Virus record (IMG/VR): IMGVR_UViG_3300044448_004493
Coordinates: 649 to 64,648 of that record
Source of the DNA: a virus
Taxonomy: Duplodnaviria; Caudoviricetes
Direction: 5' to 3' (one strand)
DNA: 64,000 nt
Shown: positions 1,586 to 54,984 of the stretch, piece by piece
Layout of the letters: each line of letters begins with the position of its first letter
Numbering within the stretch: position 1 is the stretch's first letter
Made by a program: the position numbers and the translations under genes
The notes under the pieces: generated by a model
Seen by the model: the letters and a program-made list of their open reading frames with translations, nothing else
The model's database searches: none
Told to the model about the DNA's origin: nothing

Positions 1586-3538
1586 ATGAAAAAACAAAAA
1601 ACTACAATAAATCGTTTTAAAAAACTAGCAGGGTTAAAACCTCTATATGAAAGTAGAAAAAAACAACAACTAAATGAATTTTGGGAGGCAATTTTAGGGG
1701 CAGCAGCTTGGTGGTTAGTAAAAAGACTATATAATTATTTTGAGGGTGACCCAGGAATGGTAAGCCCTGGAACTAGTGGTGGAGGAGATTTACCATTTGG
1801 AATGGCTGAATTTGAAGCAGAAGCATTAATGAACTGGGCAGAAAGTGGAGGACGTCCATCAGATGAAATAGCTATGATAGTTAGAAAATATCAACATTTT
1901 ACTCCTTATGGAAAAAGAATGGGTAAAGATGATAGTTTCGACAGGCATTTAGGTGAAGCATTAGATTATGATGATTTACCTCCTAGTAAAAAACTTCTAA
2001 ACGAAAAATTGTGGGATGACAAATTAGTTTTTAACCCATGGGATGATGGTGAGAAAGATCCTTTTGATAACCCATTTGGAGGATTCGACCCATGGAATAC
2101 AGGTTCTACAACAGGAGGAGATGAAGGTTCAGGAGATGGATCTTGTAAAGCAGGATGTGGTAATTTATGTAGTGTTGCTACGAATGCAAAAGAATTAGAA
2201 ACCTATGTATCCCGTTTGGGAAGTGAAAAAGAAATAGAAAACTTTGTCAAAACAACTATAGAACCTATTGGTACCGGCTTTACATGGGATTGGGTTGTAA
2301 GAAAAGCTGGAATGAGAGAGGAAAAAATGGTCTTAAAGGAATGGTTAGGTGTATTAATTGGATTGATTGCACTTGGTGTTGGAACCTGGGCTTTATTTAG
2401 AAAACCAAATTGTGACTGTCCATGTGGAGGAATGGTACGTCCTGGTGGTGATGGATCTTTACCTGCTACACGTAAAAATGAAATAAAACGTCCTAGTGGT
2501 AAAAGAAAATCTTATTATAAGAAGCATAGAATGTCTGAGCAAACAAGCCTATTAGATGATAACCCATGTGATTCATGGGGTAATTTTCAAACTTGGTCAG
2601 ATCAGTTTGAACAAAATTTTACTAATGCTCCTTGGGCTAATAACCCAAACCAACCATGTAAATTTTTAGGAAATAGAGTAGATAAATGGAGAGCAAAAGC
2701 ACAAGGGGGAATTGGTCAAGCATGGCAAGCTCAATTAAATTGTAAAATACAACACACAATACAAACTTTAGGCCCTCAATATGGATGTACTAATTTAACA
2801 GAATCTAAAGGAAAACTTTCAAAAGTTAAAAAAGCAATATTAAACTTAATGAAAGAAAGCACGAATAAAAAACTTAGACAAATAGCAAATAAAGCAGGAA
2901 TTTATGAGAGGTTAGATGAAAAGAAAAAGAAGTCTAAAATGGAGAAAATAGTAAAAGGAATTTTAAAAATTATTGGTTGGCCAAAGAGTGGTATAACGAC
3001 TTCAACTACACTAGGTGATCTTATAAGTAGAAAAGCTGAATTCGAAAAGATGGCCAAAGGCTCAGGTGGAGACTCTAGTGGAGATTCAGGACCTAAAGAA
3101 CCAAAAGGAGAACCTGTAGATGAATCAAAAGGACAATTAAACGAAGCGTGGTGGATGGGTATAGCTATCAAACTTATACTTTTTCTATTAGATGAGATGG
3201 ATGTTTTAGGATTGACTAATGATAATACAGTGGGTGATCTGCTTGATAAATTAGAAAGTGATGACGTTGATACAGGAAAAGCTATAGGCCAATCCATGAA
3301 TTGTTGTACAGGTGATGTACATTGTGGTGCTGGAGGAAGATGTGGAAAAGATTGTAGATGTGAATATGGAGCTCCAGGAAACCCATGGGATAATGTAGGA
3401 GACTCAGGAGATTCAGGACCTAAAGAACCAAAAGGCCAAGATATGGCAGAATCAAGAGTACCACGTAGATTATTAGAAGCAGTTAAAGCAGTTAGAAGAA
3501 GTAATAGTAAAGGTGGATGTGGTTGTAGTAAAAAATAA
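1586..3538 (+). CDS. modular polyprotein, candidate capsid-packaged protease-processed cargo
   Basis: N-terminal RFKKLAGLKPLYE motif. Modules begin after LNE, LKE, LDE and PVDE, and include hydrophobic helices and Cys-rich blocks. Confidence 0.6.
   Translation: MKKQKTTINRFKKLAGLKPLYESRKKQQLNEFWEAILGAAAWWLVKRLYNYFEGDPGMVSPGTSGGGDLPFGMAEFEAEALMNWAESGGRPSDEIAMIVRKYQHFTPYGKRMGKDDSFDRHLGEALDYDDLPPSKKLLNEKLWDDKLVFNPWDDGEKDPFDNPFGGFDPWNTGSTTGGDEGSGDGSCKAGCGNLCSVATNAKELETYVSRLGSEKEIENFVKTTIEPIGTGFTWDWVVRKAGMREEKMVLKEWLGVLIGLIALGVGTWALFRKPNCDCPCGGMVRPGGDGSLPATRKNEIKRPSGKRKSYYKKHRMSEQTSLLDDNPCDSWGNFQTWSDQFEQNFTNAPWANNPNQPCKFLGNRVDKWRAKAQGGIGQAWQAQLNCKIQHTIQTLGPQYGCTNLTESKGKLSKVKKAILNLMKESTNKKLRQIANKAGIYERLDEKKKKSKMEKIVKGILKIIGWPKSGITTSTTLGDLISRKAEFEKMAKGSGGDSSGDSGPKEPKGEPVDESKGQLNEAWWMGIAIKLILFLLDEMDVLGLTNDNTVGDLLDKLESDDVDTGKAIGQSMNCCTGDVHCGAGGRCGKDCRCEYGAPGNPWDNVGDSGDSGPKEPKGQDMAESRVPRRLLEAVKAVRRSNSKGGCGCSKK
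3080..3435 (+). repeat. 29-bp exact direct repeat GGAGATTCAGGACCTAAAGAACCAAAAGG (3080-3108 and 3407-3435)
   Basis: Read directly from the sequence; encodes the GDSGPKEPKG linker twice within 1586..3538. Confidence 0.9.
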
Positions 3539-34422: not shown

Positions 34423-36126
34423 ATGAAAAAATTTAATTATAAAAAATGGGTAGTAGAAAATAAATACTATGGTAAACAACCACTAAATGAATTTTGGGGT
34501 ATAATTGCGGGATATGTAGCTAATTGGTTATATGATAGATTAAGTGATTATTATGGATCTGGTAACCCGCTAGATTGGTTTGGTGGTATGGAAATCCCAC
34601 CTCCACCACCATTTGGAATGCCTTTAGATGATGTAAAAGTGATAGCATCAACAAATGGTAATTTTGAAAACCCTGAAAACCCAGAAGAATTATATAGAGT
34701 AGTTATGAAATATAAACATCTTACTCCTTATGCTGATGCTCAAACTAGGGGAGATATGAAGATGATAAGAGAACAAGAAGATAAAGATCAGTATGGCCGT
34801 ACTCAGGCTGATAGAGACTGGGAACAGGGTATCAACCCAAAAACAGACAAAAAAAGTACAGCACAGAATTCACCCTCTCAAGAAGAAAAAGTTAAAGTAA
34901 GTATAGATGGAGAAAAAACAGACGTTACAATTAATTATAAACCAGGTAGTAATCTTCAAGATGTTCAAATCAGTTGGGGAGAAGAATCACATACCGTAGA
35001 TTTTGAATACGATGACACAATGGATGATCATGGTAATGAAGGTATGGACACATGGTTTACAGCAGAATCAGAAGATGGTAAATGGAAATTTGGATTAGAA
35101 GTTTATGTAGAAGCTAGTTTTCATAATTCAGGTAATATAGGAGATTGGGATTGGAATTCTTTAGAAATAGAAATAGATGATTCTAAGAAGGATGAACCTG
35201 TAGATGAAGCTAGGGGCCCATCAGGATGTCCCCCTGTATCTTGTAGAGATGGGTTAACACAACATCCAGATACTTGTAAATGTGTTCGAACTAGCTCTCT
35301 TATGGAATCTAAATTAAAAAAAGTAATAAAAAAACATTTGAGAAAATTAAATGAACAAACACAGGATCAATGTGAAAGTTTACAATCACACCCTAGTTTT
35401 CCAATGTGTTGTGAAAATGCTATAGGAGGTAATCCTCCTAACCCACAAGCTTGGTGGGAAGCAGATGAATGTACAAATATTTTTAATACCGCAGCTAGTA
35501 TGGGATTAAATCAAACACAACTTGAAAATTGTTGTAAAGGTGTTTATAGTACTGGTTGTGAAGTAACATTACCAGCGTCTCACCCGTCTTGTGTAAAATG
35601 TTTCTCAAATCAAGCACAAGGATCCCCAGTTCCTCCAGGAGGAGCAGCAGCAGGAGCTCCAGGATCTGGAGATAATTGTGAATGTTGTGAAGATGATTCA
35701 GGAGAAGATCCATGTAGTGATAAAAATACAGCTCATGCACAATGTTTTTGGTGTAGACAAGAAAATAACCCTACACAAACATGTTCTATGGTGGGAGCTA
35801 ATTTAGGATACGCTTTATCTAATAATATTCCTTTATTTTCAGATATAAATGATTGTCATGCACAAACAAGTTGTAATGGTCCTGGTGAAGATCCAGAAAT
35901 AAAATGTCAATGTTGTGATAAACATAATCAACCTGTATCTATGGTACAAACAGTACCTTCTACTCCAGGATGTAGTGTTTTAAATAACCCACCAAATTTT
36001 ACAAATTGTCAAACCCATCCATTATCTGGAGGAACACCGATAAAATGTAAAACACTACCAGGCCCAATAGATGATTTCCCTGTAGGTTTATCAGAAATGG
36101 TAAAAGCTTTAGGATATATAAAATAA
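34423..36126 (+). CDS. modular polyprotein, candidate head cargo
   Basis: QPLNE-FWG module homologous to the first module of 1586..3538; PVDE, LME and LNE boundaries; Cys-rich C-terminal half. Confidence 0.6.
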   Translation: MKKFNYKKWVVENKYYGKQPLNEFWGIIAGYVANWLYDRLSDYYGSGNPLDWFGGMEIPPPPPFGMPLDDVKVIASTNGNFENPENPEELYRVVMKYKHLTPYADAQTRGDMKMIREQEDKDQYGRTQADRDWEQGINPKTDKKSTAQNSPSQEEKVKVSIDGEKTDVTINYKPGSNLQDVQISWGEESHTVDFEYDDTMDDHGNEGMDTWFTAESEDGKWKFGLEVYVEASFHNSGNIGDWDWNSLEIEIDDSKKDEPVDEARGPSGCPPVSCRDGLTQHPDTCKCVRTSSLMESKLKKVIKKHLRKLNEQTQDQCESLQSHPSFPMCCENAIGGNPPNPQAWWEADECTNIFNTAASMGLNQTQLENCCKGVYSTGCEVTLPASHPSCVKCFSNQAQGSPVPPGGAAAGAPGSGDNCECCEDDSGEDPCSDKNTAHAQCFWCRQENNPTQTCSMVGANLGYALSNNIPLFSDINDCHAQTSCNGPGEDPEIKCQCCDKHNQPVSMVQTVPSTPGCSVLNNPPNFTNCQTHPLSGGTPIKCKTLPGPIDDFPVGLSEMVKALGYIK

Positions 36127-45369: not shown

Positions 45370-47214
45370 ATGGCAGATACTAGCTTATTTTCAAGACTAC
45401 AACGGTTATTTTCAAGTGATGTAATCATTAGAAATGTAGGAGGAAAAAGACTTAAAGTAATGGATACAGGTAGGATCCAAAAATATGGAAACCTAGCTAC
45501 TAATTCACTTTATGATAGATTTACACGTCTACATAAACCTGTAGGATCTTCATTACAATATAACCCAACACTGAATTATCAATCAATGAGACTTCAGCTT
45601 TATAGTGATTATGAAGCTATGGATCATGATCCTATTATTGCAGCAGCACTTGATGTTATTTCTGATGAAACAACTTCAAGAAATGAATATGGGGATGTTT
45701 TAAATATTAATTCTTCGGATGAAAATATTAGAAAAGTATTACATAATTTATTTTATGATGTTTTAAATGTAGAATTTAATCTTCCTACATGGGTTAGAAA
45801 TATGTGTAAATATGGAGATTTTTATTTAAAAATGGAAGTTTCTGAAAAATTTGGAGTATATAATGTTATTCCTTTATCTGTTTATGAAGTAGTAAGAGAA
45901 GAAGGAACAGATCCAGAAAATCCTTCTTATGTTAGATTTACACTTGATCCAAATGGTTTAGCTAGTGGTGCAACTAATACAATTAGAAGAGATCAATTCA
46001 CATTAGAAAACTATGAAGTAGCTCATTTTAGATTACTTACAGACTCAAATTATCTTCCTTATGGTAGAGCTTATTTAGAACCTGCTCGTAAAGTATTTAA
46101 ACAATTAATGTTAATGGAGGATGCTATGTTAATTCATAGAATTATGAGAGCACCTGAAAAAAGGGTATTCTATATTAATATTGGTAATACTGATCCTGAT
46201 AAAGTAGAACAATTTATGGCTGATACAGCTAATAAGATGAAAAAAACACCTTATATAGATCAAAATACGGGTGATTATAATCTTAAATTTAACATGCAAA
46301 ATATGACTGAAGATTTCTTTATTCCTATTAGGGGTAATGATGCTTCAACAAGAATTGATACTACTAAAGGATTAGATTATGATGGTACTCAAGATATTGA
46401 ATACTTAAAAGCTAAAATGATGGCTGCTCTTAAAATACCTAAACCATTTTTGGGTTATGAAGAAGGAGTAGAAGGAAAATCAACATTAGCGGGTATGGAT
46501 ATTCGTTTTGCAAGAACAGTAGAACGTATCCAAAGAATTATAGAATCAGAATTAACTAAAATAGCATTAGTACATTTATATTCACAAGGTTTTACAGATG
46601 AACAATTAGTAGATTTTAAATTAGAATTAACAACCCCATCAATAGTTTATGAACAAGAAAAAGTAGAACTATATACAGCAAAAACTACAGTAGCTCAAAC
46701 TATGATAGATAATAAAATATTTAGTAAAGATTGGGTTTATGAAAATATATATGGTTTATCTCCTGATCAATATAATGATCAAAAAGAAGCTATGTTAGAT
46801 GATGCAATATCTAAGTTTAGAGTTTCACAAATTGAAAATGAAGGAAATGATCCTGTAGAATCAGGTACATCTTATGGTACTCCTCATGATTTAGCTTCAT
46901 TATATGGTAATAAAAGGGACAAAGCAGTAGGCCCGGCTCAAATACCAACAGGTTATGATGAAAAAGATCCGGGGCGTCCAGTAGAAGATCCTACTAAATA
47001 TGGAAGTGATAAAGGTAATTTTAGTAGGGATCCATTAGGTAAAAAAGCTTTAGCAACAACATCCCCAGATAAATTATCAGATGGAAACAGAGTTTCTACT
47101 TTTGAAGTACAAAATATTAAACAATCTCTTCAAAAGTTAAAAAAGAAAAAAAAGATTTTAAAAGAAGAAGAAACAGGACTTTTATCTGAAAAAAATATTA
47201 AGCCTCAAGAATAG
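45370..47214 (+). CDS. gp20: portal protein (T4 gp20-like)
   Basis: LEPARKVFKQLMLMEDAMLIHRIMRAPEKRVFYINIGN and MTEDFFIPIRG motifs. Confidence 0.95.
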   Translation: MADTSLFSRLQRLFSSDVIIRNVGGKRLKVMDTGRIQKYGNLATNSLYDRFTRLHKPVGSSLQYNPTLNYQSMRLQLYSDYEAMDHDPIIAAALDVISDETTSRNEYGDVLNINSSDENIRKVLHNLFYDVLNVEFNLPTWVRNMCKYGDFYLKMEVSEKFGVYNVIPLSVYEVVREEGTDPENPSYVRFTLDPNGLASGATNTIRRDQFTLENYEVAHFRLLTDSNYLPYGRAYLEPARKVFKQLMLMEDAMLIHRIMRAPEKRVFYINIGNTDPDKVEQFMADTANKMKKTPYIDQNTGDYNLKFNMQNMTEDFFIPIRGNDASTRIDTTKGLDYDGTQDIEYLKAKMMAALKIPKPFLGYEEGVEGKSTLAGMDIRFARTVERIQRIIESELTKIALVHLYSQGFTDEQLVDFKLELTTPSIVYEQEKVELYTAKTTVAQTMIDNKIFSKDWVYENIYGLSPDQYNDQKEAMLDDAISKFRVSQIENEGNDPVESGTSYGTPHDLASLYGNKRDKAVGPAQIPTGYDEKDPGRPVEDPTKYGSDKGNFSRDPLGKKALATTSPDKLSDGNRVSTFEVQNIKQSLQKLKKKKKILKEEETGLLSEKNIKPQE

Positions 47215-48704: not shown

Positions 48705-49322
48705 ATGCTTTTAACAGAATATAGACAATTTAAAGTAGATAAACAAATAGCGGAACAAGCTGTTAGAGAAAATAAACCTTTAATAGTTCAAGGTGTACTT
48801 CAAAGAGCTGAAGCTAAAAACCAAAATGGTAGAGTTTATCCTAAGGAAATTCTTGCGAGAGAAGTCCAAAATTATATAGATGGTCCTATTAAAGATAATA
48901 GAGCTATGGGAGAATTAGACCACCCAGAAAGTTCTATAATTAATTTACAAAATGTATCCCATACAGTTAAAAAATGTTGGTGGGATGGTGATGATGTGAT
49001 AGGTAAAGTAGAAATATTAAATACACCAGCAGGAAATATATTAAAAGCATTATTTGCAGCAGGAATAACAGTTGGTATTAGTTCTAGGGGAATGGGTTCA
49101 GTAGAAGAAAATATATCAGAAGGTACAGTAGAAGTACAAGATGATTTTGAATTATTATGTTGGGATTTTGTTTCAACTCCCTCAACACATGGTGCTTTTA
49201 TGAAACCATCAACTCCTGGTATTAATGAAAATAAAATAAAACAAATAGAATACAAATACACAAATATAAATAATATAATTAGAGATATAATTTGCGATAA
49301 TACAGGAGTATGTAAATGTTAA
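48705..49322 (+). CDS. gp21: prohead protease (T4 gp21-like)
   Basis: NQNGRVYP, GELDHPE, NVSH, GISSRGMGS and WDFVSTPSTHGA motifs. Confidence 0.95.
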   Translation: MLLTEYRQFKVDKQIAEQAVRENKPLIVQGVLQRAEAKNQNGRVYPKEILAREVQNYIDGPIKDNRAMGELDHPESSIINLQNVSHTVKKCWWDGDDVIGKVEILNTPAGNILKALFAAGITVGISSRGMGSVEENISEGTVEVQDDFELLCWDFVSTPSTHGAFMKPSTPGINENKIKQIEYKYTNINNIIRDIICDNTGVCKC

Positions 49323-49373: not shown

Positions 49374-50591
49374 ATGATGTTTAGGGGAAATATAAATGAA
49401 ATGGGATGCCCATTACAGTGTTGTGTTTATACAAACATGAATGCTAATTACACTATTCAAAATACCACAGTATCAGATTGTACAATAGATTGTTTACATC
49501 AATCTATGCAACTGTTTTTTGGTGGTCCAGGAGTTAGTAGTGTTACAAATATAGATTCAAGTGGAGGGTGCCCGGTTGGAGTAGATCCAACAGGTATGAC
49601 TGTAACATGTGATGGATGTCCAAATGGGGTTCCAGTTAGTCAGCAATACCCAGATCCTCCAGGTTGTCCTCAAGGATGGATACTATCAGGAACAATTAAC
49701 CCTAATACCGGAACAGTTTTAAATCCATGTGATGACGAGGGAGAGATGATTTCTTGTGATTTTTGTGATAATGGATCACCAATTAGTAATACATTCCCAA
49801 CAGCTGATGGATGTCCTCCAGGATGGATACCATCTGGTTCAGGGAATCCTTGTGATGGTCAAGGAACAGGATGTGATTTTAGTCCTAGTGGAGGATGTGC
49901 AACTCTTCATGATTTACAAGGTAGATTTGTAAATAATATGCCAAATAATTTCTTAGCTAATATGTACAATGGGTATAATAATAATGGTTGTCCTTTCTTA
50001 CACAATAGATTACAACATCATTCAGATATGATAAATTCAAACCCACAAACATTTTATGGACCTAATAACCCACAAGGATATGTGAATCCAGGACCATTAT
50101 GGGTTAATCAAAAACAATCTAAAGTAGACTTTTTACAATGTATAATAGCAGCTTGTTGTACAGGAACTGGAAATGATCACTCAGATCCGTCAGATCCGGT
50201 TGATCACGCTAGAAGAAGAAGACCAAGAAGAATCAGAGAAAATAAAAAAACAAAATCATTATTAAAAGAAAGATTTAAACAATTAGCAGGATTAAAACCT
50301 TTATATCAATTAAAAGAACAAAATCCATCTGGGACATGTCATGGAGTAGGTGATGCATCAGGTCCTTATCCAGAATCATTTGAATTAGGTAATTGGCAAG
50401 GTACTTTTGAGGATAGGCTATCAACAGCCAATAGTCCATGTGATCTTATACAGAAAAAAGTAGATAAATGGGAAAGTAAATTAGATCAACTTTCATCTAA
50501 AACTCCTCCAAAATGTAATCCTAAATGGCAAAGTCAATTAATGGCTAAAATAGCTTATGGTAATGAGTTAAGGGTACAATACGGTTGCTAA
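49374..50591 (+). CDS. Cys-rich modular protein with an internal RFKQLAGL tag, candidate head cargo
   Basis: INE, IRE and LKE boundaries; two copies of a Cys/helical module also present in 1586..3538. Confidence 0.6.
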   Translation: MMFRGNINEMGCPLQCCVYTNMNANYTIQNTTVSDCTIDCLHQSMQLFFGGPGVSSVTNIDSSGGCPVGVDPTGMTVTCDGCPNGVPVSQQYPDPPGCPQGWILSGTINPNTGTVLNPCDDEGEMISCDFCDNGSPISNTFPTADGCPPGWIPSGSGNPCDGQGTGCDFSPSGGCATLHDLQGRFVNNMPNNFLANMYNGYNNNGCPFLHNRLQHHSDMINSNPQTFYGPNNPQGYVNPGPLWVNQKQSKVDFLQCIIAACCTGTGNDHSDPSDPVDHARRRRPRRIRENKKTKSLLKERFKQLAGLKPLYQLKEQNPSGTCHGVGDASGPYPESFELGNWQGTFEDRLSTANSPCDLIQKKVDKWESKLDQLSSKTPPKCNPKWQSQLMAKIAYGNELRVQYGC

Positions 50592-50794: not shown

Positions 50795-51229
50795 ATGAAA
50801 AATTTAATTATGACAATTGCTGTAGCAATCATGACTACGTTTGCAGCTTCAGCACAATTTATGGTAGTTACGACTTATAATGCACCAGAAGATGGAGCAG
50901 AATGGGAAATGACTAGCTTAACTGACAACATGGGTATCGGATATGTAATAAACGATAAATATGTTGCTGGTTTAGTAAAAGCAGGAGAAGATTCAACAGG
51001 TGAAGCTTCTTATGACTTATGGGGCCGTTACAACTGGAATGCAAATTTATATGTTTCAGTACAAGCACCAATGGAAGAAATGATGGACAACTTAACAGTT
51101 GGACTAGGTTATTCTTACAATGTTTGGAAAGGGCTCAATGTTGAACCTAACTACAGCATGGGTTTAAAAGAAGATGAAAATGGTGAAAGAGCAGGTTCTT
51201 TCAATTTAGGTTTGTCTTACAAATTTTAA
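50795..51229 (+). CDS. small outer-membrane beta-barrel protein with a Sec signal peptide
   Basis: Signal peptide ending ASA|Q; alternating aromatic beta strands; C-terminal FNLGLSYKF BAM signal. Confidence 0.85.
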   Translation: MKNLIMTIAVAIMTTFAASAQFMVVTTYNAPEDGAEWEMTSLTDNMGIGYVINDKYVAGLVKAGEDSTGEASYDLWGRYNWNANLYVSVQAPMEEMMDNLTVGLGYSYNVWKGLNVEPNYSMGLKEDENGERAGSFNLGLSYKF

Positions 51230-51275: not shown

Positions 51276-51503
51276 ATGGAAAAAGTATTTTCAACAGTAA
51301 GTGGATTTTTAACAGGATTAGGATCATTATTTATGGGTTTAATTCCAGTAACAATCCTTTGGTACGTCTTAACAGGCGGAACAGTATTTGGAATGGATGC
51401 AATCGCTAATTTAACTTCATTAGTAAATGGATTTGGAGAAGGTGGTTTCGTAGGATTAGTAGTACTAATTATCGTAGCATCATTTTTTACAGGTAAAAAG
51501 TAA
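51276..51503 (+). CDS. small Gly-rich multi-pass membrane protein
   Basis: Two to three hydrophobic helices and a KK tail. Confidence 0.7.
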   Translation: MEKVFSTVSGFLTGLGSLFMGLIPVTILWYVLTGGTVFGMDAIANLTSLVNGFGEGGFVGLVVLIIVASFFTGKK

Positions 51504-51703: not shown

Positions 51704-53245
51704 ATGGCAAAAGACATTTTAAAAGAAGCTATCGCTGATGCTAAAGCTGTTCGTGAAGTTGCTCTTGCAAATGCAAAAGCAGCCCTAGAAGAAGCTTTTA
51801 CACCGAAACTTCAATCAATGCTATCTGCTAAATTATCTGAAGAATTAGAAGAAGACATGTATTACGATGAAGATGAAAATGATGATGTTGAAGAAGAATT
51901 AGATTTAAATTCAATGTTAGATGAAGACGAATTGGAATCAGACATCGAAGAAGACATGGATTATAATGAAAATGAAGATAATATGGATGATGGTATGGAT
52001 GAAGAAATCGATTTAGAAGAAATTCTTAACGAATTAGAAATAGAAGGCGATGAAGCTAACGAAGACGAAGAAGATCTAGAAGAATTAGCACGTCCAAACT
52101 ATAAAGCAGAATATACTGGAACAAACCACCATTATTCAGCTGATAAAGTAATGGAAAGTGAAGAATTTGATTTAGATGCTCTTCTAAAAGAAATCAATAA
52201 TTTAGACGAAACAAAACAACCTTTAAATGAAATATGGATAAAGATTGGGTGCTTCCTTATAGGATGGGGGTTAACTGCACTCTTTGATCATTTTGAATGG
52301 TTACCTGCAGGAGGAGGTGGAATGACAACCGGTCCTGGTACTGGTGGTGTAGGAGACGCTGATATGGCTGCTGCAGCACGAAAAATAGGATTAACGGTTC
52401 CACAAACAAACAGATTACTAGGATGGGCAGAAAAAAATCCACATAAAATAGAAATGTGTAATAGTGGTGGTTCCCTAACAATGAATGATGTATCAGAAAT
52501 AAGAGACATTCTTCCTATATTAGCCGCAAAAAGTGGACGAGCAGATATGGGTGGAGTAGATACAGGTTTAAGAGGACCTAAAGAACCAATGGCAATGATG
52601 GATATGATGGAAAACGCTGAACCTGTAAATGAAAGCATATTTGCTGCTTTGTCAGGATTAGTAGCGCTATTAGGTACAGCTGGTATTACAACAGCAATCG
52701 AAGTGGCATTAGAAGATCCAGAATTCGCAGAGAAACATCCTAAATTAAAAGGTGTTTTTGATTTACTTAAAAAAATAGGAAATTCTTCATTAGTTAAAGG
52801 TATTAAACAAGAAGATATAACTTATGATGAAGACGAAAGTGATGAGTCAGAAGAGCTTGAAGAAACTAAAAAAGCCCTTAAAGCAGTTAAATCTGAACTT
52901 AATGAAGTTAATCTTTTAAATTCTAAATTATTATATGTTAATAGGATTTTTAAATCTAACAATTTAGATGATGGTCAAAAACTTAGAGTTGTTGAAACAT
53001 TAGATAAAGCTGGAAGTATTAAAGAATCTAAATTAATATATGAAACAATTAAGGATACTTTTAATGTTGCTAATACAAAGAAAGCATCTGTTAGAAAAAA
53101 TCAAACAAGAACTATAAAAGAAAATTTTGGAATGGCTTCTAAAGCAGCTGGTATTTATAAAGCTCCTAAAAAAGAAATCATTTCAGAGTCTAATAATATG
53201 GTATCTCGTTTCCAAAAATTAGCAAACATACAGATAAACGAATAA
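51704..53245 (+). CDS. gp22: prohead scaffolding/core protein (gp22-like) with inserted cargo modules
   Basis: Immediately before the capsid gene; acidic and coiled-coil; ends SRFQKLANIQINE. Confidence 0.8.
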   Translation: MAKDILKEAIADAKAVREVALANAKAALEEAFTPKLQSMLSAKLSEELEEDMYYDEDENDDVEEELDLNSMLDEDELESDIEEDMDYNENEDNMDDGMDEEIDLEEILNELEIEGDEANEDEEDLEELARPNYKAEYTGTNHHYSADKVMESEEFDLDALLKEINNLDETKQPLNEIWIKIGCFLIGWGLTALFDHFEWLPAGGGGMTTGPGTGGVGDADMAAAARKIGLTVPQTNRLLGWAEKNPHKIEMCNSGGSLTMNDVSEIRDILPILAAKSGRADMGGVDTGLRGPKEPMAMMDMMENAEPVNESIFAALSGLVALLGTAGITTAIEVALEDPEFAEKHPKLKGVFDLLKKIGNSSLVKGIKQEDITYDEDESDESEELEETKKALKAVKSELNEVNLLNSKLLYVNRIFKSNNLDDGQKLRVVETLDKAGSIKESKLIYETIKDTFNVANTKKASVRKNQTRTIKENFGMASKAAGIYKAPKKEIISESNNMVSRFQKLANIQINE

Positions 53246-53268: not shown

Positions 53269-54984
53269 ATGAACACAGTAAATTCATTATTAGAAGGATC
53301 AAGTCCTTACCAAGTTCTTCAAAACCAAGCTGCCAAATTATCTGGTAAGTGGGAAAAATCAGGACTTTTAGAGGGAATTGAATCTTCTACAGACGCAAAC
53401 AACATGGCTATTCTTTTGGAAAACCAAGCAAAGCAATTAGTAAACGAAGCTAACACTACGGGTACTGGTGCTAATATTTCAACTGGTAATTCAGAAGCAT
53501 GGGCAGGTGTAGCTCTTCCATTAGTACGAAGAGTATTTGGTGAAATCGTTGCTAAAGATTTAGTATCGGTTCAACCAATGAACTTACCTGCTGGATTGAT
53601 CTTTTATTTAGACTTCCAGTATGGTTCAACAGGTGATGGTTTCACATCAGGCGATAGCTTATATGGAGCTTCATCAGACCTTAAGAGAACTGAACTTCCT
53701 GCTACAGCAAATAGAAAAGCTCTATATGGTGCAGGTACTTTCGGTTACTCATTTAACCAAACAGGATCTGCTACAGTTACTTTAGCTTCAGGTGCTGCAG
53801 CTCACGACACTCCATCTGAATTATTAAATGGTATCTTAAATATGGATACACAATTCTCAGCATCTAAAGCTGGTGAATTTAATGATGGTAATGCAGTAGT
53901 AAGAGTTGTAACAGTAAATACTTCATCATTAGTTGATTTTGATGTAGATGCAATTAGAGCTATTTCTTTAGGAACTGGATCTTTAGGTGTTGATCTTTTC
54001 CCACAATTTACAAGAGTAAATGCTGGTAAACTTGAATTAGTAATTTCAGCAGCTGCAAATATTGATATGGAAGGTATGAAAGTAACTTACCCAATCACTC
54101 CTGACAACTTAGATGACAGAGGTGACTTTGAGGAAGGTAAAAACGCATCTTCAGCTGGTGGTGGAACTGATGGTCTTAACTCAACACTTGAAATCCCTGA
54201 AATCAATGTTCAATTAAGAAGTGATACAGTTGCTGCTAAAACACGTAAATTGAAAGCACAATGGACTCCTGAGTTCGCTCAAGACTTGAATGCTTACCAT
54301 TCAATTGACGCTGAAGCAGAATTAACTTCTATCTTAAGTGAATATATTTCAATGGAAATTGATTTAGAAATCTTAGACATGTTAATCAGAAACGCTGATA
54401 CAGTTGAAGGTTGGAGTGCTAAAGTAGGTGAAGATGTTTCAGTTACTAGCCCATCTAACAACTCAGTAGGTGGTTCTAACCCAGCAGTTACTTTCTCTAC
54501 AGAAACTAACAACTTAGGTGTATATTACACTAAGATGTCTTGGTTCCAAACTTTAGGTATTAAATTACAAAAAGTTAGTAACTTAATTCATCAGAAAACT
54601 TTAAGAGGTGGTGCTAATTTCTTAGTAGTTTCTCCAAGAGTTTCTACAATCTTAGAATCAATCCCAGGATTTGCTGCTGACTCAGCTGGAGACAGTGACA
54701 AATACAACATGGGTGTTCAAAAGATTGGTGCAATTAACAACAGATACACAGTTTACAAAAATCCTTATATGACTGAAAATATCATTTTAATGGGTTACAA
54801 AGGATCTCAATTCCTTGAAACTGGTGCTGTCTTTGCTCCATATATTCCATTAATCATGACTCCATTAGTGTACGATCCAACGTCATTCACACCAAGAAAA
54901 GGTATTATGACTAGATACGCTAAGAAAATGGTTCGTCCTGATTTCTATGGTAAAGTAGTAATTAGAGACTTAGACCAACTGTAA
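53269..54984 (+). CDS. gp23: major capsid protein (T4 gp23-like)
   Basis: VSVQPMNLPAGLIFYL, TRKLKAQWTPEFAQDLNAYH and PYIPL motifs; strong C-ending codon bias; predicted cleavage at LVNE60|A. Confidence 0.96.
   Translation: MNTVNSLLEGSSPYQVLQNQAAKLSGKWEKSGLLEGIESSTDANNMAILLENQAKQLVNEANTTGTGANISTGNSEAWAGVALPLVRRVFGEIVAKDLVSVQPMNLPAGLIFYLDFQYGSTGDGFTSGDSLYGASSDLKRTELPATANRKALYGAGTFGYSFNQTGSATVTLASGAAAHDTPSELLNGILNMDTQFSASKAGEFNDGNAVVRVVTVNTSSLVDFDVDAIRAISLGTGSLGVDLFPQFTRVNAGKLELVISAAANIDMEGMKVTYPITPDNLDDRGDFEEGKNASSAGGGTDGLNSTLEIPEINVQLRSDTVAAKTRKLKAQWTPEFAQDLNAYHSIDAEAELTSILSEYISMEIDLEILDMLIRNADTVEGWSAKVGEDVSVTSPSNNSVGGSNPAVTFSTETNNLGVYYTKMSWFQTLGIKLQKVSNLIHQKTLRGGANFLVVSPRVSTILESIPGFAADSAGDSDKYNMGVQKIGAINNRYTVYKNPYMTENIILMGYKGSQFLETGAVFAPYIPLIMTPLVYDPTSFTPRKGIMTRYAKKMVRPDFYGKVVIRDLDQL

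Follow-up and report, generated by a model that had tools for sequence, protein, structure and literature searches.

Why does the scaffolding protein of a phage head interrupt its acidic, helical chain with two stretches that each open with a hydrophobic helix? The question is posed by the open reading frame (ORF) at 51704..53245 (+) of IMG/VR virus record IMGVR_UViG_3300044448_004493, of which 64,000 of the 64,648 bases were analysed (the window; G+C about 30%, with nearly all genes on one strand). An initial annotation of this locus had read the two stretches as excisable passengers that would be delivered into the head at scaffold stoichiometry, and this reading of the scaffold centre was partly supported. 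The explanation favoured here is that the scaffold is a carrier of exchangeable cassettes, that the prohead protease would release them, and that the released pieces would be retained in the head and exit with the DNA; taken as a whole, it was assigned a probability of roughly 50%.

The 513-aa product of the ORF (56.8 kDa, pI 4.4) is the prohead scaffold of this phage, in the role of T4 gp22. It was identified from the position of its gene, its acidity, its long terminal helices and the homology of its ends to the genes in the same position in Flavobacterium phage vB_FspM_immuto (immuto) and Microcystis phage Mel-JY01; residues 392-509 are 52% identical to the immuto protein, and AlphaFold2 (AF2) predicted long helices at both ends. 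The gene lies between a prohead protease gene of the T4 gp21 type (48705..49322, +; Peptidase_S77 E 4.6e-32, 111.5 bits against a cut-off of 27; phrog_207) and the major capsid gene (53269-54984; Gp23, E 1.6e-79). The head gene row reads portal (45370-47214; Portal_T4, E 9.7e-69), two unassigned ORFs, protease, three small ORFs, the 513-aa ORF and capsid, an order that matches T4 genes 20-67-68-21-22-23 and that of immuto. The nearest cultured phages are immuto (capsid 55% identical), Mel-JY01 and Rhodothermus phage RM378; the window phage is an uncultured T4-like marine phage, and its host probably belongs to the Bacteroidota. The scaffold matched no Pfam, PHROG or PDB family, hence no enzyme domain, and the same result was obtained with the modules searched separately (Pfam and PHROGs at E up to 10).

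The scaffold was divided as follows, with all features on the plus strand. An N-terminal helix (residues 1-46, 51704..51841; AF2 helix 2-44) is near-invariant in 51 homologues and 98% identical to P0001, a 525-aa protein from ENA. An acidic repeat region (residues 47-170, 51842..52213; Asp plus Glu 45%) holds the conserved anchors EEIDLEEILNELE and FDLDALLKEINNL and is followed by the leader KQPLNE (52214..52231), a K-Q-x-h-N-E motif (h, hydrophobic residue) and a probable prohead-protease site with the cut after Glu176. Module 1 consists of a Trp-rich hydrophobic helix (residues 177-200, 52232..52303; AF2 helix 174-196), a Gly-rich linker read from the sequence (residues 201-216, 52304..52351; predicted local distance difference test score, pLDDT, below 50), a five-helix domain (residues 217-277, 52352..52534) and a Gly/Met-rich tail with the sequence GPKEP (52535..52633; pLDDT below 50) that runs to PVNE310, a second probable protease site. 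Module 2 (52634..52813) comprises a Gly/Ala-rich hydrophobic helix (residues 311-336) and then EDPEF..KHPK with an amphipathic helix (residues 337-370). The chain closes with a second acidic stretch and a C-terminal helical domain (residues 371-513, 52814..53242; AF2 long helices 378-466), which is 96% identical to P0001 and ends in RFQKLANIQINE. A minus-strand ORF of 116 aa (52288-52638) was rejected as a gene, since the Gly-rich coding sequence opposite accounts for it.

At the very C-terminus, the window scaffold shares the motif R-[FWMI]-[QK]-[KR]-L-A-[GN]-[IL] (window 53207-53242; loci L085 1739-2839 and L086 1863-2711) with its counterparts in immuto, Mel-JY01 and RM378. This conservation suggests that the motif is probably the shell- or portal-binding end of the protein.

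The break in composition is sharp, and its proposed extent of about 190 aa at 52232-52813 proved exact to the base: the codon of Ile177 starts at 52232, and that of residue 370 ends at 52813. Asp plus Glu make up 45% of residues 47-176 (Gly 2%), fall to 12% in residues 177-310 (Gly 16%, with four Trp and two Cys) and in residues 311-370 (Gly 10%), and return to 55% in residues 371-390. As the annotation had also claimed, the two modules open with hydrophobic helices immediately after PLNE176 (IWIKIG...) and PVNE310 (SIFAAL...). Kyte-Doolittle means over 19 residues reached 1.48 at residues 185-186 and 1.81 at residue 321, compared with a maximum of 0.68 in T4 gp22. Against the threshold of at least 1.6 for a transmembrane-type helix, the helix of module 2 qualifies and that of module 1 is borderline, below the threshold.

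Is this centre a regular part of the scaffold? Homologues of the scaffold are numerous (at least 7,994 metagenome sequences, and 158 in IMG/VR). The centre was delimited by the anchors FDLDALLxEINNL and ELNEVNLLNSKLL, both of which could be placed in 170 homologues, a sample that leans towards the best matches and in which the regular expressions for module classes misfile a few sequences. Centre length ranged from 52 to 234 aa (median 108), with the window scaffold the longest, and once the acidic linker was removed the contents fell into about 27 unrelated cassette clusters, including Cys/His motifs, basic stretches, Trp-rich pieces and helical domains. Eight scaffolds had the acidic linker only and neither module. 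On a backbone tree of 141 rows built with the centres omitted, the centre class changed at least 30 times, compared with 52-57 times when labels were shuffled, and classes were mixed inside well-supported small clades. Indeed, backbones 98-99% identical carried different centres: module 2 is present in L008 and missing from L060, and present in P0052 and replaced by another cassette in P0093. An alignment of related scaffolds, the check named in advance for the passenger idea, thus found the centre variable or absent rather than a universally conserved domain. At the level of sequence, these comparisons demonstrate that a cassette slot exists and that both modules are exchangeable and dispensable for the family.

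The scaffold homologue of immuto is gp067 (L001 4563-5804), which is annotated as a 'DNA polymerase phi-like protein'. In its centre a 57-aa cassette occurs twice in tandem, both times after VNE or LEE.

A slot of this kind could be nothing more than a disordered, recombination-tolerant linker that gains and loses functionless sequence and is degraded with the rest of the scaffold. The wide range of centre lengths fits such a neutral spacer, as do the many short, low-complexity cassettes, the absence of any cassette from the distant scaffolds of Mel-JY01, RM378 and T4, and the much faster divergence of the modules (54-60% identity to P0001, against 96-98% for the ends). Neutral sequence would, however, hardly preserve a 61-residue domain without gaps at 54% identity and with pLDDT of 84-91, as in module 1, or residues that are invariant over deep divergence, as in module 2. 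Cassettes also start at h-N-E far more often than composition predicts, and module 1 is preceded by an extended site of the type found in the capsid protein. A spacer without function was judged improbable.

The two modules differ in their distribution. Module 1 (residues 177-310, 14.1 kDa) is built from the Trp-rich helix, the Gly linker, the five-helix domain and the GPKEP linker, and is shared with only one other protein, P0001. No further copies were found by a search with the region, by HMMER against 1.8 billion representatives, or by scans of metagenomes and IMG/VR; four additional HMMER matches were discarded as Gly-rich or repeat artefacts. Compared with P0001, the ends of the scaffold are 96-98% identical, the Trp helix 56% and the helical domain 54%, the last of these in a gap-free alignment; the GPKEP linker, which aligns only with gaps, reaches 42%. 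In the full-length AF2 model residues 220-275 formed a five-helix bundle with pLDDT of 84-91, and the score was about 80 when the region was folded alone. The fold (AF2 residues 201-300) had no match among solved structures (Foldseek best E 1.1; VIA best Z 4.4), and Atlas look-ups with both modules returned weak helical look-alikes only. The core of module 1 was considered as a helix-turn-helix (HTH) DNA-binding domain, and this reading was not adopted: Pfam gave no match at E up to 10, the best Z was 4.4 (ZntR), Foldseek E exceeded 1, and Atlas template modelling (TM) scores against HTH clusters were 0.33-0.43. G+C at third codon positions in module 1 was 0.21, not above that of the capsid gene, and so gave no sign of recent foreign origin.

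Paralogues of module 1 do occur within the window, at the N-termini of two other ORFs. The first is in ORF 1586-3538 (1655..1855, +; KQQLNE/FWEA...WAESGG, the slash marking the presumed cut here and below), with a Smith-Waterman z of 11.5 that none of 500 shuffles reached and a tblastn E of 6.7e-4 in its own record. The second is in ORF 34423-36126 (34468..34752, +; KQPLNE/FWGI...), with z of 7.9 against the scaffold and 18.5 against ORF 1586; local composition somewhat inflates all of these z-scores. The leader is common to the three units, as are an (F/I)W helix, an aromatic-x-x-F/Y-E/G turn, a Gly/Pro stretch and the helix that follows; the Trp-rich helix of module 1 aligns with the FW helix of the two ORFs. 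The GPKEP linker had been described as common to the scaffold and ORF 1586, and the six-frame translation bore this out, with two occurrences in ORF 1586-3538 and one in the scaffold, three in all; the copies have an identical 16-nt core, and each lies 6-14 residues ahead of an h-x-E site. Since the KQ(P/Q)LNE leader was found in P0001 alone among 183 other scaffolds checked, the module 1 unit seems to have entered the scaffold along with its own cutting site.

The two ORFs themselves are large, Cys-rich and multi-module, with an N-terminal unit of leader, KQxLNE, FW helix, ..FGM.. and ..KY.H.TPY. Neither matched a PHROG or Pfam family, and a pattern scan of IMG/VR with the W-helix unit found no relatives.

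Module 2 is of another kind. Its signature, a Gly/Ala helix followed by (E/D)DP(E/A)F..K(Y/H)PK and an amphipathic helix, was found in 94 of the 170 homologues (about 55%), with near-invariant Gly and Pro positions kept across deep divergence. Among backbones 88-99% identical it is swapped for unrelated amphipathic modules, or lost. As a gene standing by itself it was met in one 114-aa fragment only. By its distribution, module 2 is an old and common cassette, and "passenger" is therefore too strong a word for it.

This distribution raises the main rival to the favoured explanation, and it is for module 2 that the rival is most plausible. The hydrophobic helices might serve assembly only, by binding the core, by docking the N-terminal helices of cargo such as the products of ORFs 1586 and 34423, or by tethering the prohead to the membrane; the protease would then remove them, and they would leave or be degraded like the rest of the scaffold. 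The presence of module 2 in so many sampled relatives, its near-invariant Gly and Pro and the transmembrane-like hydropathy of its helix all favour this idea. So do two properties of T4: proheads form on the membrane, with the localisation of the core proteins unsolved (PMC9958956), and internal protein IPIII affects head assembly and co-purifies with gp22 (PMC9026906). Against it, scaffolds with backbones 94-98% identical lack module 2, and others have unrelated helices in its place, so scaffolding as such can do without the module. Module 1, moreover, occurs in two sequences only, and a docking helix has no need of a folded domain of 60 residues. A role confined to assembly is possible, and was rated as the less probable account of the modules.

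The favoured explanation requires that the prohead protease cut at the module boundaries. The GELDHP and GISSRG motifs of the window protease, which we take to hold the catalytic His and Ser, are invariant with respect to T4 gp21. T4 gp21 cleaves after L/I-x-E (PMC9026906) and takes 65 residues off gp23 (PMC9958956). In the window capsid protein, the reference for protease specificity is the maturation site KQLVNE60/ANTT (53431..53448, +), which aligns with LTE65/AEIGG of T4 gp23. A three-way capsid alignment placed the T4 LTE ending at residue 65 over LVNE60/ANTT of the window and IVSE/ANVT of immuto, and VNE stood at the maturation position in 56 of 57 related loci. The strongest evidence came from the extended motif K-Q-x-[LIVM]-N-E, for which a scan of the window in six frames found exactly four sites (0.05 expected; none of 2,000 shuffles reached four): the capsid site, the start of module 1 (KQPLNE/IWIK), and the leader ends of ORF 1586 (KQQLNE/FWEA) and ORF 34423 (KQPLNE/FWGI). 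The motifs at which the two modules start both correspond to the capsid maturation site. Consistent with these boundaries, both module junctions lie in low-pLDDT, probably exposed stretches of the AF2 model, and the candidate VSE265 lies inside the confidently predicted domain of module 1.

As for shorter motifs, the scaffold contains 27 [LIVM]xE motifs and five h-N-E motifs, including a C-terminal INE. Sixteen [LIVM]xE motifs fall within residues 1-176 (9 expected), and none within the 74 residues of module 2 (residues 311-384; 2.6 expected, P 0.03). In the centres of 106 non-redundant homologues, NE dipeptides were enriched 2.4-fold (z 13.7, a value that overstates independence, since the sequences are related), and V, T, L, M or I preceded NE at 69% of its occurrences, compared with a background of 24%. 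The helix of module 2 followed x-N-E directly in 62 of 83 homologues, and in 20 more it followed h-N-E-GPE, three residues later.

Two further observations concern candidate cutting sites. Near the C-terminus of the window protease, PGINE/NKIK (residues 172-176, 49218-49232) aligns with KEITE/SQ of T4 gp21, an alignment that would fit the C-terminal self-cleavage reported for related proteases. In the homologues P0078, P0069, P0098 and L013, tandem heptads of the xEETNE type, up to six in a row, stand directly before the helix of module 2; these heptads look like arrays of cutting sites.

Could h-N-E instead be a by-product of acidic, Asn-rich repeats, so that no products starting with IWIK or SIFA ever arise? 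Cleavage is predicted here from motifs, Thr before NE is atypical for T4, and the homologues behind the statistics are related to one another. Against this reading stand the VNE at the position aligned with T4 Glu65 in nearly all relatives, the alignment of the protease's own C-terminal INE with T4 ITE, the confinement of K-Q-x-h-N-E to four head-related sites, and the presence of SINE and PLNE within T4 gp68. The by-product reading was considered very unlikely, and these sequence comparisons give good support to the prediction that the prohead protease excises the modules.

The favoured explanation can now be set out in full. In the scaffolds of this clade, acidic repeats join conserved helical ends, and a slot between the anchors accepts in-frame cassettes, two of them in the window scaffold. 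After assembly of the shell, the gp21-type protease would cut behind h-N-E and free both modules with hydrophobic N-termini, and the acidic and coiled-coil parts would be chopped small and exit the head. The predicted pieces are of 14.1 kDa and of 8.3-9.8 kDa (8.3 kDa if module 2 extends from residue 311 to about 387). By analogy of size with the T4 internal proteins, both would remain in the head at scaffold copy number and exit with the DNA into the host. A T4 prohead contains about 580 copies of gp22 (PMC9958956), and at that number the load would come to about 13 MDa by our own arithmetic, within the range of the T4 internal proteins.

Several findings weigh against this explanation. The frequency of module 2 is high enough to hint at a role in assembly. 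At most module 2 boundaries NE is preceded by Thr, outside the L/I-x-E rule of T4, and the specificity of the protease rests on one aligned capsid site and on motif statistics of related, non-independent sequences. The depletion of [LIVM]xE was not seen inside module 1 (2 found, 1.8 expected), and further cuts, for example at VSE265, are possible there. T4 gp22 showed no detectable homology to a profile of 51 scaffold sequences (hhalign probability 0.6%), a null result that, since scaffolds diverge fast, neither proves nor rules out common descent. Two other records, both of them fragments (26-29 kb), contained no paralogues of other cassettes. The presence of hundreds of hydrophobic peptides in a DNA-filled head is possibly unfavourable, and a search of the literature found no virion proteomics for this clade, nor cleavage or ejection data.

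A broader proposal is offered more tentatively, and is doubtful as it stands. The scaffold centre of this abundant marine clade might be a general cargo bay, a hot spot of recombination between conserved arms and protease sites through which small cassettes are traded. With no need of a targeting tag, each cassette would enter the capsid in several hundred copies and, once injected, would act on the host as a membrane-active or anti-defence peptide.

Three ORFs between protease and scaffold were also noted. The first (49374-50591) encodes a Cys-rich protein of 405 aa that starts MMFRGNINE/MGCP, a 9-residue leader closing in h-N-E and resembling a T4 capsid-targeting sequence (CTS); it also holds RFKQLAGLKPLYQ, which is similar to the scaffold C-terminus. 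The second (50795-51229, 144 aa) has a signal peptide (..AASAQ/F), the C-terminus ..LSYKF and a weak match to OMP_b-brl (E 0.017); it is a candidate for a small outer-membrane beta-barrel that the phage encodes within its head gene row. The third (51276-51503, 75 aa), just upstream of the scaffold gene, has two Gly-rich hydrophobic helices and no family match.

The sorting of proteins into phage heads is still called mysterious, T4 included (PMC9958956), and a literature search found no described natural, hypervariable, non-enzyme cassette slot inside a scaffold. If the favoured explanation is true, exchangeable cassettes bounded by protease sites would be the simplest natural answer to the sorting problem, with targeting and copy number obtained for free. 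A clade with thousands of relatives in ocean metagenomes would then hold a large, fast-evolving pool of injected peptides and provide a natural counterpart to the cargo systems engineered from the P22 scaffold and the T4 CTS. The idea would be testable in the cultured phage immuto, with the duplicated cassette in its scaffold.

The principle of a passenger linked to a scaffold has precedents. In the protease-scaffold fusions herpesvirus UL26, lambda C/Nu3 and P2 gpO, and in P22 scaffold fusions, a protein joined to the scaffold rides into the procapsid and is freed by maturation cleavage. In UL26, C/Nu3 and gpO, however, the passenger is the protease itself, and the P22 scaffold fusions are man-made, as is the CTS-GFP packaged into T4 heads (PMC9958956).

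Exposure of a hydrophobic N-terminus by cleavage is found in the ejection proteins of SPN3US and phiKZ, such as SPN3US gp47, in which the prohead-protease cut exposes a mature fragment that starts with a predicted transmembrane helix and whose propeptides are suspected of acting in core or scaffold formation (PMC5694885). SPN3US gp47 is a precedent for the N-termini predicted here. These phages differ from the window phage in having no confirmed gp22-type scaffold, in the cleavage motif A/S/G-x-E, and in cargo that lies C-terminal to a propeptide and not in the middle of a scaffold. The internal head proteins DarA and Hdf of phage P1 combine a link to head morphogenesis with delivery as anti-restriction cargo (PMC12810830). 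They are encoded by separate genes in an unrelated head system.

The closest comparison is with T4. Like the window scaffold, gp22 is an acidic, helical component of the core, of high copy number, whose gene lies between those for the gp21 protease and the gp23 capsid protein; it is cut many times after Glu, and a processed fragment, gp22*, stays in the head (PMC9026906, PMC9958956). Unlike the window scaffold, it has 269 aa, no hydrophobic segment, and no inserted folded domain or exchangeable cassette. Alongside gp22*, the T4 head retains about 300 copies each of internal proteins with masses near 8, 10 and 20 kDa (PMC9026906). IPI, IPII, IPIII and Alt are non-essential, fast-changing proteins (8-20 kDa) that are loaded into the core in hundreds of copies; gp21 trims them after L/I-x-E, and ejection takes them out along with the DNA (PMC9026906, PMC9958956). 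The fragments of 14.1 and 8.3 kDa predicted for the window scaffold fall within their size range. The T4 proteins are the products of separate genes and enter by an N-terminal tag of about 10 residues, whereas the window modules lie within the scaffold chain itself; module 1 is preceded by the KQPLNE leader and has no N-terminal tag of its own of the T4 CTS type. Targeting and copy number would thus come from the scaffold. The window scaffold is, in sum, a variation on the T4 theme of core and internal proteins.

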